Assembly (NCBI GenBank): GCA_030629005.1
Contig: DAOVPV010000007.1
Span: forward strand, 6,356 to 70,355
DNA: 64,000 nt
From: a bacterium
GTDB lineage: Bacteria; Babelota; Babeliae; Babelales; UASB340
Direction of reading: 5' to 3'
The notes under the pieces were generated by a model. It was given only the letters and a program-made list of their open reading frames with translations. It ran no database searches and was not told the DNA's origin. This document shows positions 47,197 through 57,620 of the stretch, in pieces. A program made the translations under genes and the position numbers. Positions within the stretch are counted from its first letter, which is position 1. Every line of letters begins with the position of its first letter.

Positions 47197-47289
47197 CCAA
47201 GTTATTTTAGGGGCTATAGTTCCCGCCGTCGCGTAAAGCTTTGGCGGACAGGCGCTGTAGTTTCCAAGTTATTTTAGGGGCTATAGTTC
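47195..47289 (+). repeat. 28-bp direct repeat (47195-47222 and 47262-47289) that includes the first 13 nt of tRNA-Ala and brackets a hairpin element
   Basis: TTCCAAGTTATTTTAGGGGCTATAGTTC x2 around CCGCCGTCGCGTAAAGCTTTGGCGGACAGGC. Confidence 0.92.
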
Positions 47290-47352
47290 AGTTGGTAGAA
47301 CGCATGAATGGCATTCATGAGGTCACCGGTTCGACCCCGGTTAGCTCCACCA
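47277..47352 (+). tRNA. tRNA-Ala (GGC)
   Basis: GGGGCTA acceptor, CATGA-ATGGCAT-TCATG anticodon arm, GGTTCGACC T-loop, encoded CCA; 76 nt. Confidence 0.96.
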
Positions 47353-47383
47353 GCCTTCGCTGAAGCTACGGCTTGGCGAGCCA
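47350..47383 (+). repeat. Hairpin element fused to the tRNA-Ala CCA end
   Basis: CCAGCC-TTCGC-TGAA-GCTAC-GGCTTGG-CGAGCCA. Confidence 0.85.
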
Positions 47384-47421
47384 GTAAAGGTAGGAAATTT
47401 AAAATAAATATTAATACAAAA

Positions 47422-47964
47422 ATGGGAAAGAATGTGAGAAAAGAAAATATAAAAAATATAATTTATCTTTTTATTCCAGTAATTTTACTTTCAATTTTAT
47501 TTTTTAGTTTTTACTATAATCATGATCTAAAGACATCAATAATTTCTACGTTTATTACATGGTCATTTTATATTTTATGCATTCCAGCCTTTCATGGCAA
47601 ACTAGTTATAGGCCTGCCATATAAAATAATTACTGGCAAAACATTAAAATATCCGGAACTTATAATGTGGTCAATAGCAGCAATATTTACAACAAGCTCC
47701 CTATTCTTTTTAAAAGACATCTTCTTTTCTTCTATAATAAACCATCTATTTTATATAATATTAACAAATCCATGGCCATATTTAGTTGCCATTTCCGTTG
47801 CAACTTTTGGAACATTTTATAGATTTACTATTGGATACAACCATTTCTTTGATAATAAAATTTTACATTATATACTACGAACTATAGTCATAGTTTGCAG
47901 TATTTTTATTTTAATTTATTTATCATATAATGAACTTATAATTCTAATGAATTTATCTGTATAA
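47422..47964 (+). CDS. Hypothetical multi-pass membrane protein
   Basis: About 5 hydrophobic segments; the ORF-track start overlaps the tRNA, so the start was moved downstream. Confidence 0.7.
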   Translation: MGKNVRKENIKNIIYLFIPVILLSILFFSFYYNHDLKTSIISTFITWSFYILCIPAFHGKLVIGLPYKIITGKTLKYPELIMWSIAAIFTTSSLFFLKDIFFSSIINHLFYIILTNPWPYLVAISVATFGTFYRFTIGYNHFFDNKILHYILRTIVIVCSIFILIYLSYNELIILMNLSV

Positions 47965-47982
47965 TCGGAAGAACACACGAGT
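47965..47982 (+). repeat. Left part of the 36-bp element, directly after a stop codon
   Basis: TCGGAAGAACACACGAGT. Confidence 0.85.
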
Positions 47983-47992
47983 TAGGACAAAA

Positions 47993-49159
47993 ATGTTAAA
48001 TATTCCATTATCTGGAATTAAAAAAGTTGAAGCTGTAATTAATAGCAGCAATGAATATATATCACTCTCTCAAGGTGCACTTAAAATGGGTGGCATTCCT
48101 AGGCAAATAAAAGACTATGTAAAAACAATTCTCTCTACAGATAAAACAGATTACTACCAAAGCGCCTGGGGAATTTTACCACTAAGAGAAAAACTCGCCA
48201 ATCTAATTTCTACACAAAACAATATTTCTATACAAACAAATCAGGTAATAATAACTCATGGATGTATTGGAGCGCTTTCCACCTTATTTTTAACTTTATT
48301 AGAACATGGCGATGAAGTAATTTTACCTGAACCAACATACCCTGCATATGAAAAGCTAACAAAACTTGCAAGAGCAAATGCCATTTTTGTTCCTATACTA
48401 ACCAACAATCAAGATAAAGATAATCATTGGAAATTTGATATAGAAAGAATAAAACAAGCAACAACTGCAAAAACAAAAATTATAATTTTTTCTAATCCAT
48501 GGAATCCATTAGGTATTATCATAAGCGAAGAAAAAATTAAAGAACTTTTAAATTGGTGCGAAAAAAATAAAATCTATTTAATCATAGATGAAGCTTATAA
48601 GGACTATGCCTATGATGAATCATATAATTCATCCACAAAATTTGTGACTCAATCAGAATATTTTATAAGCGTAAATACATTTTCCAAAAATATGGCAATG
48701 AGTGGCTGGAGAGTTGGCTACATGGTAATTCCACAAAAATTAAATACTCCTGCTGGAGCAATGCAAGATGCATTATTAAACTGTACCAGCGTCCCTGCTC
48801 AATACGCAGCATTATTTGCATTAGACCATCCCGAATTTACAGAAAAATTTCGAACTACTCTTAAAAAAAACCTGTATATTTTAGATGATAAATTACACAA
48901 GCTAAAAGAAAGCAACATATTAACCTATCAAAAACCAAAAGGAAGCTTCTTTTTATTCTTAAAAACAAATTACGATAATTCTGAAGAACTTACCCTAGAT
49001 ATTTTACGCAAAACAAAAGTTGGATTAATTCCTGGAAAATATTTCGGCGAAAGCGGTAAACCATTTATAAGACTATGTTTTGCAAGAGACGAAAACGTTC
49101 TTATAGAAGCTATAGATAGAATCAATGATTATTTTGCAAAAAATAGTTTTCTAAAATAA
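47993..49159 (+). CDS. PLP-dependent aminotransferase class I/II
   Basis: SNPWNPLG, IDEAY, TFSKNMAMSGWRVG, FIRLCF. Confidence 0.93.
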   Translation: MLNIPLSGIKKVEAVINSSNEYISLSQGALKMGGIPRQIKDYVKTILSTDKTDYYQSAWGILPLREKLANLISTQNNISIQTNQVIITHGCIGALSTLFLTLLEHGDEVILPEPTYPAYEKLTKLARANAIFVPILTNNQDKDNHWKFDIERIKQATTAKTKIIIFSNPWNPLGIIISEEKIKELLNWCEKNKIYLIIDEAYKDYAYDESYNSSTKFVTQSEYFISVNTFSKNMAMSGWRVGYMVIPQKLNTPAGAMQDALLNCTSVPAQYAALFALDHPEFTEKFRTTLKKNLYILDDKLHKLKESNILTYQKPKGSFFLFLKTNYDNSEELTLDILRKTKVGLIPGKYFGESGKPFIRLCFARDENVLIEAIDRINDYFAKNSFLK

Positions 49160-49172
49160 TGAAAAATTAAAA

Positions 49173-55792: not shown

Positions 55793-55842
55793 ATTGTTCT
55801 ATTAGTGTCAAATTTATTATTTAATCAATTCCGTTAAAAAGC

Positions 55843-55906
55843 TGGCCTGCCATACGACCTGTCCTCCGTAGCTTTATGCGTAGGAGGAAGCTTTAGCGAA
55901 GTATGG
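55843..55906 (-). repeat. Hairpin element at the tRNA-Phe CCA end, with a second copy (55858-55888) nested inside it
   Basis: Minus strand: CCATACTTCGCTAAAGCT[TCCTCCTACGCATAAAGCTACGGAGGACAGG]TCGTATGGCAGGCCA. Confidence 0.85.
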
Positions 55907-55978
55907 TGCCGGGAGGCAGAATTGAACTGCCGACACAAAGATTTTCAGTCTTTTGCTCTACCACTGAGCTACCCCGGC
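55904..55978 (-). tRNA. tRNA-Phe (GAA)
   Basis: GCCGGGGTAGCTCAGTGGTAGAGCAAAAGACTGAAAATCTTTGTGTCGGCAGTTCAATTCTGCCTCCCGGCACCA. Confidence 0.96.
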
Positions 55979-55987
55979 GCAAAAAGA

Positions 55988-56008
55988 TCGAAAGAAACAT
56001 TTAATGTT
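55988..56008 (+). repeat. 21-bp core element variant in the tRNA-Phe leader
   Basis: TCGAAAGAAACATTTAATGTT. Confidence 0.9.
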
Positions 56009-56033
56009 ATTAGTCAAAGATATCGATGACTGT

Positions 56034-56062
56034 ATGGTACAAATAAGATTATTTTCTGTCAA
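56034..56062 (-). promoter_or_regulatory. Sigma70-type promoter for tRNA-Phe
   Basis: TTGACA-17 bp-TACCAT on the minus strand, about 55 bp upstream of the tRNA. Confidence 0.7.
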
Positions 56063-56159
56063 TAAAAACTTTTTCGATTTTTTCTTAAATTGCAGCTTTA
56101 AAATATTAATTTTTTTTATTTATTCCTTTAAAAATAATTAGCAACTTAGATAAAATATA

Positions 56160-57620
56160 TTATAGCTTATATTGAGTTTCTAAGGTTTCTAAAACCTTAA
56201 TAATCTGATTATAAACATCAACTTGTCGCTCTAATTTTATTTTTTGAAAATTTAACTCCACAGTTTTGGACCTATCTCTTTTAATCTGTCTTTTTACTAA
56301 ATCTAACGCAACAACAGAACTATCATACTGCTCTTTTGCCAAGTCATACGGAGTTTTATCATCTCTATTTTTATATAAAATAATATCAGAACCAGATCTA
56401 TTTTTATTTATTAATGTTTTTATAAACTCCAACTTCCTTTCTACAGGCTCTCCGCAATCTGCTAAAACAACTAAATGCAATGGCGTATTTTTCCAATAAT
56501 CTTGCAACATTGGATAAACTTTATTTTTTAACAAGGCATCCAGCCAAGCAACATTACAATTATTAGCAACAAAATGTATAAAAAACTTATGATAAGCATA
56601 ATTCTTTCTTATAAATGTCATAAGTTCATTTTTTAATAATTCTTTTTTAGCAAGCAACTCTTCTTTATTTGCAAACTGACTAAACAAATTATTAAATAAT
56701 ACATCCTCAAATTTTAAAACATCAAAGAAAGGAGCCACGGCAAACAAGTGTCCCATCATATTTTTTGTTTGTATAACATTTTCTTTTATTTTTTCCAAGT
56801 CACTATCGGCAAGCTTAAAAATATCTTTTGCAAATAAAAAAAGTCTATCCAAAACATCTGGGCCCAAGAATTTTGAAAAATCCACATCCTTAACTTCTAA
56901 TAAAGTTTCTAATAAATCTATCTTTTTTAACGCACTAACAAAATTTTTTATTTTATCCGGATCAGTTACTTTAGAAATATTTTCAAAACTGCTCACCAAG
57001 TCATCTTTATCTATTTGCATCCTCCCTTTTTTAACAAGATTAGAAATTGTACTTAAAGATGCAAATTTTAAAGCCAACGCCAACAATTCTTTTTTCTGCC
57101 TATCAGATAAATTAGAAATATCATAAGCATTAAAATATCTACTTAAAATATATTGACTATCTAATAAGACTAAATAATTTAAAGCTGCTTTTTGATTATC
57201 TTTAAATATATAATTCAATACTTTTTTCAATTCATAATCTGAAGTAATTTTAGATAAAATAGCCGTTTGTTTTATTTCATCATTTTCCAAAAGCGATTTA
57301 TTAAATTCCGGAACATTTAAAGCTTTTAAGTCTGGTGTTAAATTTGCAATGTCTTCAGGATTTAGAGCCTTTAAATCAAATTTGATATTAGTTAACAAAT
57401 TTCTTTTGTACAAACTCAAATTATTGTAAATTACCGGTGTTACCGGAGTAACCGTTGTTACCGGAGTAACCGTGTTGGAAAGCATCGCCTGAGGTTCTGA
57501 GAAATTATTATCCAGAATAATTTCGTCGGAAGAACACACCCGGCCTTCGCCAAAGGCTATGGCGGGCACGGCGAGTTTTAATGCTAATAAAAATATTAAA
57601 ACTTTTTTTAGAATAAACAT
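56160..57620 (-). CDS. Secreted ankyrin-repeat-containing protein
   Basis: Signal peptide; NTPLHLVV and KTPYDLA ankyrin motifs near the C-terminus. Confidence 0.75.
   Translation of the reverse strand: MFILKKVLIFLLALKLAVPAIAFGEGRVCSSDEIILDNNFSEPQAMLSNTVTPVTTVTPVTPVIYNNLSLYKRNLLTNIKFDLKALNPEDIANLTPDLKALNVPEFNKSLLENDEIKQTAILSKITSDYELKKVLNYIFKDNQKAALNYLVLLDSQYILSRYFNAYDISNLSDRQKKELLALALKFASLSTISNLVKKGRMQIDKDDLVSSFENISKVTDPDKIKNFVSALKKIDLLETLLEVKDVDFSKFLGPDVLDRLFLFAKDIFKLADSDLEKIKENVIQTKNMMGHLFAVAPFFDVLKFEDVLFNNLFSQFANKEELLAKKELLKNELMTFIRKNYAYHKFFIHFVANNCNVAWLDALLKNKVYPMLQDYWKNTPLHLVVLADCGEPVERKLEFIKTLINKNRSGSDIILYKNRDDKTPYDLAKEQYDSSVVALDLVKRQIKRDRSKTVELNFQKIKLERQVDVYNQIIKVLETLETQYKL
57431..57473. 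repeat. 9-bp tandem repeats encoding TVTPVTTVTPVTPV
   Basis: TTACCGGTG TTACCGGAG TAACCGTTG TTACCGGAG TAACCGT. Confidence 0.85.
57526..57585 (+). repeat. 60-bp nested element (9-bp deletion), antisense and in frame in the ankyrin protein signal peptide
   Basis: TCGGAAGAACACAC-CCGGCCTTCGCCAAAGGCTATGGCGGGCACGGC-GAGT-TTTAATGCT. Confidence 0.92.

Follow-up and report, generated by a model that had tools for sequence, protein, structure and literature searches.

Insertion sequences of the IS200/IS605 type have hairpin ends and insert as oriented single strands without duplicating their target, and free-standing GIY-YIG homing endonucleases, which occur in tRNA neighbourhoods, cut an empty site so that the filled allele is copied into it. 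Here we describe a hairpin repeat of about 30-33 nucleotides (nt) and a GIY-YIG protein of about 80 residues from a bacterium of the phylum Babelota. The hairpin was noticed in a stretch of 64,000 nt, called the window throughout (contig C11, positions 6356-70355, of genome G000, which has about 1.05 Mb and 30% GC), and a first-pass annotation of the window had described nine copies as one repeat family that inserts into itself. The hairpin and the SLX1-like GIY-YIG clade of the protein very probably belong together, and the rules for the insertion sites are the new contribution of this analysis.

By analogy, the pair is likely a sister of the system formed by Ssn (SsnA, cd10448) and its NTS/SRM repeats (PMC11893778). 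In both systems, a single-domain GIY-YIG protein, of fewer than 100 residues in Ssn, is encoded next to a hairpin of its own that is oriented and has a short unpaired tag, the repeat is dispersed in many copies, and Chenal et al. 2025 also liken the NTS/SRM repeats to repetitive extragenic palindromic (REP) sequences and IS200 (PMC11893778). The two systems also differ. In our pair, both hairpins follow a tRNA, precede the gene and have a 3x3 internal loop, and the SRM pattern is found in 0/84 copies and 0/80 loci, in a strict form that matches only 1/3 Ssn-like control loci. The nuclease probably falls in another protein clade, with a 100/100 split, in a 10-row tree, from the gene L167 of a congener, which sits on a long branch and is putatively Ssn-like by its SRM-type flanks. 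Moreover, our hairpin inserts into tRNA ends and into itself, whereas the word “tRNA” occurs 0 times in PMC11893778.

The REP and REPIN sequences that go with RAYT are likewise tagged imperfect palindromes of 20-40 nt, found as inverted doublets, tandem arrays and in-frame copies in genes (PMC3733652, PMC8266576). Our hairpin shares the layout of the REPs tagged with GTAG or CGTC, but its tag is new and CNTG-like, its partner is a GIY-YIG protein and not a Y1 transposase, and its insertions lie at fixed points inside other REPs. Oriented insertion without target duplication and hairpin ends are shared with IS200/IS605, for which a guide and cleavage rule has been described (PMC8266576); unlike these elements, ours consists of one 30-nt hairpin, has no HUH enzyme and repeats the CCA at tRNA ends. 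In contrast to the homing GIY-YIG enzymes, the protein has no DNA-binding domain, its cargo is a 30-nt hairpin, and microhomology would replace long homology. Among the papers listed by our literature search, none describes the hairpin or the cassette presented below; supplements and subscription papers, such as Ssn and REP tables, may hold the motif, and the excerpt of PMC5737381 contained nothing relevant to the hairpin.

A hairpin family with covarying stems and fixed insertion sites

A scorer for stem, core and tail, tuned on the same genome to which it was applied, found 84 copies in G000, against none in either of two dinucleotide shuffles made in 200-nt blocks and 1 when the genome was reversed. 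A covariance model trained on 82 rows, all from outside the window, recovers the eight uninterrupted window copies at E<=0.002 and no others up to E=1. Both methods agree on a single family, as had been claimed, and every one of the nine copies was found where the first-pass annotation had placed it. In an Rfam scan no hairpin copy had a match at E<=5, the matches being tRNAs and one sub-threshold match on tRNA-Phe.

On the strand used in that annotation, the layout is an outer 3 base pairs (bp), an optional bulged A/G, an inner 3 bp, K-W-C, GC, loop, GC, T-W-Y and the mirror arms, followed by a tail of 4-5 nt with C first. The plain six-base stem proposed earlier needs amendment, as many stems consist instead of the outer and inner 3 bp with the bulge between them. 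Read on the purine-rich strand, the element is a tag of 4-5 nt, mostly CCTG, CGTG or CTTG and ending in G in 78/84 copies, with a 6-bp stem, a 3x3 internal loop of the form GWA/GWA and a short capping stem. Tandem sheared G-A pairs are a feature of such loops, and GNA triloops are stable in DNA. The purine-rich strand gives the better fold in 79/97 distinct copies with DNA parameters and in 84/97 with RNA parameters. Since single copies fold weakly as single-stranded DNA (ssDNA; z from +1.3 to -3.6), the case for the hairpin rests on covariation and not on energy.

Copies for the covariation test were chosen by the core alone, with pairing disregarded, and 16/161 matches whose loop contained another copy were excluded; the statistics take no account of relatedness among copies. 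For distinct arm pairs, inner columns 4-5 are Watson-Crick in 60/78 cells in other phyla (mean 27.1 and maximum 40 over 2000 shuffles) and in 47/64 cells in G000 (shuffled mean 23.3, maximum 36). Over 82 distinct rows with a 4-nt loop, 92.5% of cells are paired against 74.9% after shuffling, and the covariation score is 0.439 against 0.164 shuffled and at most 0.081 in slid controls; an extra pair within the loop also covaries (C-G 47, U-A 32). Two coarser measures on the 82 rows, pairs with two-sided change and further pair types, did not rise above the shuffle. The compensatory stem changes reported earlier are real by the measure of covariation against shuffles, in G000 as well as in other phyla. 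The accompanying statement that structure rather than sequence is conserved holds for five stem pairs and the loop but not for the core, which is conserved in sequence across phyla: the 3x3 internal loop, the GC/GC mini-stem and the C adjoining the stem.

Three classes of the hairpin differ in their outer three bp and in their target. Among 176 distinct contexts from G000-G003 and ten loci of the order, there are 78 TCC/GGA, 63 CCA/TGG and 31 CCC/GGG copies and 4 others. Nearly all CCA/TGG copies lie at the end of a tRNA or transfer-messenger RNA (tmRNA) gene, at discriminator^CCA (the caret marks the insertion point), with the CCA repeated, and CCA or GCC comes next in 57/63; the hairpin's left core stands at the CCA of 34/40 tRNA/tmRNA genes of G000. 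The target of the TCC/GGA class is GCT^WCG and that of the CCC/GGG class mostly W^C in other repeats. Copies of these two classes have exact ends and no target duplication, and of their 97 contexts, which are not mutually independent, 85 have A/T as the 5' base and 48 have C as the 3' base. At first landings in unrelated repeats the microhomology is 0-1 nt. Congeners differ at single sites: the inner arm at tRNA-Lys(CTT) is CCC, GCC or TAC, one tRNA-Met, which lacks a hairpin in G000, is followed in G002 and G003 by two different hairpins within identical flanks, and the tRNA-Phe site has decayed in G001 and contains no hairpin in G002 or G003. A composite host repeat of G000 occurs in 9 empty and 7 filled copies, six of the filled ones exactly 33 nt longer; one spurious row was left out of this count.

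Self-insertion, as the first-pass annotation had it, is borne out by 14 same-strand nestings in G000, where 14/29 TCC-class copies lie within a host copy on the same strand, with 13 different inserts, and 0 on the opposite strand. Nine of the nested copies are at GCT^TC, three at GCT^AC and two at variants. The GCT^AC cases rule out “TC” as a target duplication of the nested copies, and because of them the first bases are assigned to the insert. The 28 mapped rows from all fetched genome loci divide into GCT^WY (19), CT^WCG (5) and elsewhere (4), the last being two parses of one event and two spurious rows; the two main sites coincide as W^AG on the purine-rich strand, in the two strands of the loop. 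Removing positions 55858-55888 of the window restores the host, as had been predicted, and genome G025 has the same unbroken host with 0 mismatches.

Self-insertion is one case of a general preference for GCT^WCG, because copies retrieved with free flanks in Bradyrhizobium and Opitutaceae sit at GCT^TCG: 11/15 examined copies in Bradyrhizobium sp. 138, which has a total of 45, and 12/13 in an Opitutaceae genome with a total of 38, where two copies at contig ends were left out. Bradyrhizobium sp. 138 contains 95 copies of the host REP in its empty form, the same insertion site is used there within unrelated REPs, and the same junction is found across genomes of 37-72% GC. A metagenome scan covered 80 of at least 120 matching stretches, with 81 contexts; as GCT and WCG were fixed in its pattern, it informs on spread and on the variety of hosts but not on site preference. 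A host copy was flagged around 29/81 contexts, and the arms of these host copies still pair across the insert in 44/58 (27.5 shuffled, maximum 38); most other contexts lay in unrelated palindromic repeats.

The GIY-YIG gene and the tRNA cassette

G000 has four GIY-YIG genes of 79-80 residues, each directly behind a tRNA or tmRNA and a hairpin. An inverted hairpin copy precedes the start in three of them; in the fourth it follows the stop, where it splits a second copy of the T-arm and 3' end of the tRNA. At 81 related loci from many phyla (the best 80 of 588 genome matches and one viral), a hairpin lies within -400..+600 in 69/81 and a sense tRNA or tmRNA no more than 500 nt upstream in 61/81, and hairpin matches number 175 against 21 in a reversed control. 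Across 111 genomes of the phylum, gene and hairpin occur together in 61, the gene alone in 5, the hairpin alone in 15 and neither in 30. The hairpin is thus present in 61/66 genomes with the gene and 15/45 without (Fisher 3.5e-11, overstated by kinship), and 0/20000 within-family permutations equalled this association.

The protein is a single-domain GIY-YIG nuclease with an intact active site: Y17, G19, R27, H31, N32 and E63 are invariant in 108 homologues, with roles that we assume from I-TevI and Slx1. Its predicted structure has a predicted local distance difference test (pLDDT) value of 94 and the folds of Slx1, HIGLE and UPF0213 as top matches. The clade comprises at least 7828 sequences; an NCBIfam search returned no specific family, a plasmid search no matches, and viral contigs carried the nuclease at one locus. 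Other small GIY-YIG clades in the relatives, Ssn-like and UPF0213-like, are each flanked by their own, different inverted repeats. The UPF0213-like clade has long inverted repeats of its own on both sides (L164, L169, L174, L177 and L178, about 1300-1950), and together they are a third repeat-nuclease pair, separate from Ssn and from the hairpin's nuclease.

The proposed autonomous form is a cassette of tRNA, copy A, inverted copy B and GIY-YIG gene. Copy B stands directly before the start codon in complete cassettes, ending no more than 19 nt from the gene start in 30/38 loci. Its sense-strand right arm is mostly purine-rich and Shine-Dalgarno-like (GGAGGG, GAAGGG or GGAGGA in 20/31), and copy B would conceal the ribosome-binding site of the nuclease gene. 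Ahead of B lies a long-range arm, which agrees with arm 1 in 20/27 loci (shuffle mean 6.7, maximum 15), and arm 3 covaries in other phyla (34/44 vs 19.6) but not in the genus of G000 (53/130 vs 46). As a 6-nt target duplication, arm 3 fits the other phyla and fails in the genus of G000. In 5/61 loci, 13-17 nt of the tRNA 3' end recur behind the gene. The A+B unit also forms tandem arrays ahead of the nuclease gene (L090 220-850, with five 128-bp units; L077 10-260; L079 750-1000), which resemble the amplification of bacterial interspersed mosaic elements.

The copies and their neighbours in the window

The features are listed in the table below. The AccB protein that contains the copy at 31809 has 23 extra residues compared with five relatives, and the copy at 47350 has orthologues with different stems in the congeners G001 and G002. 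The site of the host hairpin at the tRNA-Phe gene is empty in G002 and G003; on the tRNA-sense strand, the long-range arm at that gene can pair with 55896-55905. Both window cassettes, at tRNA-Phe and at tRNA-Ala, are without a nuclease gene. The tRNA-Ala duplicate at 47195 is a dead 5' fragment that terminates at the hairpin, and elsewhere in G000 and in L153, too, the intact gene is preceded by a dead tRNA 5' fragment that ends in TAGCT or CCA and directly adjoins a TCC-class hairpin.

Table. Hairpin copies and associated features. Positions are those of the window unless a contig is named.
Feature	Position	Strand	Remark
Hairpin, CCC/GGG class, 33 nt	31809..31841	+	Inside composite repeat derived from a 21-nt repeat, in frame in biotin carboxyl carrier gene
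Duplicate of upstream flank and first 12-13 nt of tRNA-Ala	47195..47222	+	Second copy 47262-47289
Hairpin, TCC/GGA class	47221..47252	+	D-arm position of tRNA-Ala 5' fragment
tRNA-Ala(GGC), host gene	47277..47352	+	
Hairpin, CCA/TGG class	47350..47380	+	Left arm starts with the tRNA's CCA; second CCA after tail
Hairpin, 33 nt	52082..52114	-	In composite repeat near trmD 3' end
Hairpin, CCC/GGG class	55647..55679	+	In composite repeat upstream of likely ffh start
Inverted second copy (B) of tRNA-Phe cassette	55753..55786	+	
Long-range arm	55783..55792	+	Repeats left arm and left core of tRNA-Phe copy
Host hairpin, CCA/TGG class	55846..55906	-	tRNA-Phe CCA end; interrupted at GCT^TC
Nested hairpin, TCC/GGA class	55858..55888	-	Same strand as host; without target duplication
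tRNA-Phe(GAA), host gene	55904..55978	-	
Hairpin, CCC/GGG class	57539..57571	+	In truncated composite repeat within open reading frame (ORF) 56160-57620
Dead tRNA 5' fragments with TCC-class hairpin	G000:C2:157590-157690, C2:158050-158150, C8:165200-165270; L153		

Several further observations concern the host repeats and the surroundings. An empty composite repeat without the inner hairpin (59260-59294) and a right half only (54274-54301) are an intermediate stage from the 21-nt repeat to the filled three-layer form. The long ORF of ffh (54300-55694) begins at an ATG within the composite repeat; as relatives start at a codon near 55613, the repeat probably lies between genes. The product of trmD (52035-53567) is a fusion with a PF09936 RNA methyltransferase domain. 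The first 600 nt or so of a 1056-residue orphan ORF (59345-59957) recur 3326 nt downstream (62671-63283) with 77-80% identity, and clusters of sub-threshold Rfam matches at 40977-41056 and 62485-62593 are probably more structured elements or terminators. Outside the window, G000 has a Y1 transposase with GTAG-type REPs as inverted flanks, and also a copy with an internal deletion that keeps both REPs (G000:C6:5850-6600, C9:33400-33760; L015, L016); in G000, G001 and G003 these REPs receive the hairpin. The sequencing runs listed were four DNA runs of a single study, with none of RNA.

A nick-and-copy reading and its rivals

On balance we lean towards a reading in which the hairpin is a non-autonomous repeat, moved by the 80-residue nuclease through a nick and host copying, and has fixed insertion sites within tRNA genes, other palindromic repeats and copies of the hairpin itself. 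The family, its covariation, ends and target sites and the association with the gene are observations; the hairpin is most likely recognised as a single strand. The SLX1-like protein would nick the folded single-stranded target between the W and A of the GWA strand, or at a similar-looking place in the loop of a REP or an arm of a tRNA. The freed 3' end would anneal to a filled copy through a 2-3-nt microhomology (CCA, or WCG/GCT), and host repair would copy the filled allele into the empty site. Donors would thereby perpetuate their own target, and each insert would supply a fresh one, leading to nesting in the manner of Russian dolls. Such a nick with templated copying would account for the repeated CCA, the stems swapped between fixed flanks, the class-specific targets and the nesting. 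There is a precedent in SsnA, which cleaves ssDNA a few nt 5' of its own hairpin (PMC11893778).

Several points weigh against this reading. The congeners G001 and G002, which are 93-95% complete, lack genes of the clade but each contain 37 hairpins, and of the 15 genomes with the hairpin alone four have at least five copies. An exact TCC-class copy was found in none of three further genomes that have the nuclease gene. Gene and hairpin are both located at tRNAs, which could inflate their association, and filled composites may have been multiplied by the host repeat, in which case the contexts are not independent events. Some targets are at odds with an exact W^AG, namely the RAYT-REP loop TTA^CGC, the SRM-like GA^N and CCA^TAG. 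Among the nested copies there is no clear signal of a bias between leading and lagging replication strands (14 vs 9). Finally, we know of no case of strand transfer by a GIY-YIG enzyme.

If host copying were dispensed with, the GIY-YIG protein itself would excise and join the hairpin as a minimal single-strand transposase. The exact ends without target duplication in the TCC and CCC classes and the near absence of microhomology at first landings would suit such an enzyme, and the tRNA 3'-end duplicates behind the gene show that cassettes move; we regard it as unlikely all the same, as the CCA repeated around tRNA-end copies and the stems exchanged between identical flanks in congeners are typical of copying, and as the predicted fold is without an HUH-type catalytic tyrosine helix. 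An HUH enzyme (RAYT or IS200/IS605 TnpA), possibly acting in trans, is the partner that the first-pass annotation had suggested. G000 has one Y1 gene, copies are located inside RAYT-type REPs, and the tag, the bulged stem and, in two of the classes, the absent target duplication resemble REPs (PMC8266576). The sole Y1 gene of G000, however, is flanked by a different, GTAG-tagged REP, and the hairpin bears the GTAG tag in 1/84 copies and CGTC in 0/84. Its junctions are W^N, mostly with A/T on the 5' side, and not C|T. It occurs in 24/31 genomes with Y1 and 52/80 without (Fisher p 0.26, 111 genomes), and 30/43 genomes with at least five copies have no Y1 match. The suggested link therefore has to be given up in favour of the small GIY-YIG protein, and an HUH enzyme is improbable as the mobilising agent.

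Selection could act on RNA: arms 1-4 of the tRNA-GIY-YIG transcript would form a switch by which the CCA end and the ribosome-binding site are masked, and dispersal would be a secondary effect. Here the match of arm 1 to the long-range arm, the covariation of arm 3 in other phyla and the Shine-Dalgarno-like copy B close to the gene start find a ready explanation. The precise insertion into REPs and into the hairpin itself and the copies on either gene strand do not; for copy A, the purine-rich strand with its more stable fold is the antisense one, the genus of G000 shows no covariation of arm 3, and we hold the switch to be rather unlikely as the primary cause. It is also scarcely probable that no dedicated enzyme is involved and that template switching and gene conversion act among hairpin-rich sites, the nuclease being a co-resident at tRNAs. 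Every target is itself a hairpin and the congeners are rich in hairpins without the gene, as this would predict, but copy B keeps a fixed spacing from the start codon, each GIY-YIG clade has one kind of repeat, and the junction is identical over the whole range of GC content. Unrelated intrinsic terminators have next to no probability: although many copies stand behind tRNA genes and some have T runs after the second CCA, the core is invariant across phyla, a U-tract directly after the stem is found in only 11/84, and copies lie in frame inside genes. Terminators are thereby refuted as an explanation of the family; individual copies may be used as such.

More speculatively than the nick-and-copy reading itself, and with considerable doubt, one may see in the 80-residue SLX1-like nuclease and the 30-nt hairpin the smallest known bacterial mobile system. 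It would combine single-strand mobility of a non-HUH kind with a structural motif as its target (the GWA/GWA loop, GNA-type loops and tRNA ends), the outer three bp setting the target class, and it would be a parasite of nearly all tRNA genes and of other repeats across many phyla.

The finding provides a very large unnamed nuclease clade with a likely DNA substrate and predicted cut sites. The question of how REP-like repeats spread without a transposase, raised for the CGTC repeats (PMC3733652), is extended by a case in which the junctions are mapped to the base. If true, a second clade of ssDNA nucleases that are specific for both structure and sequence would be a tool, as has been argued for Ssn (PMC11893778).

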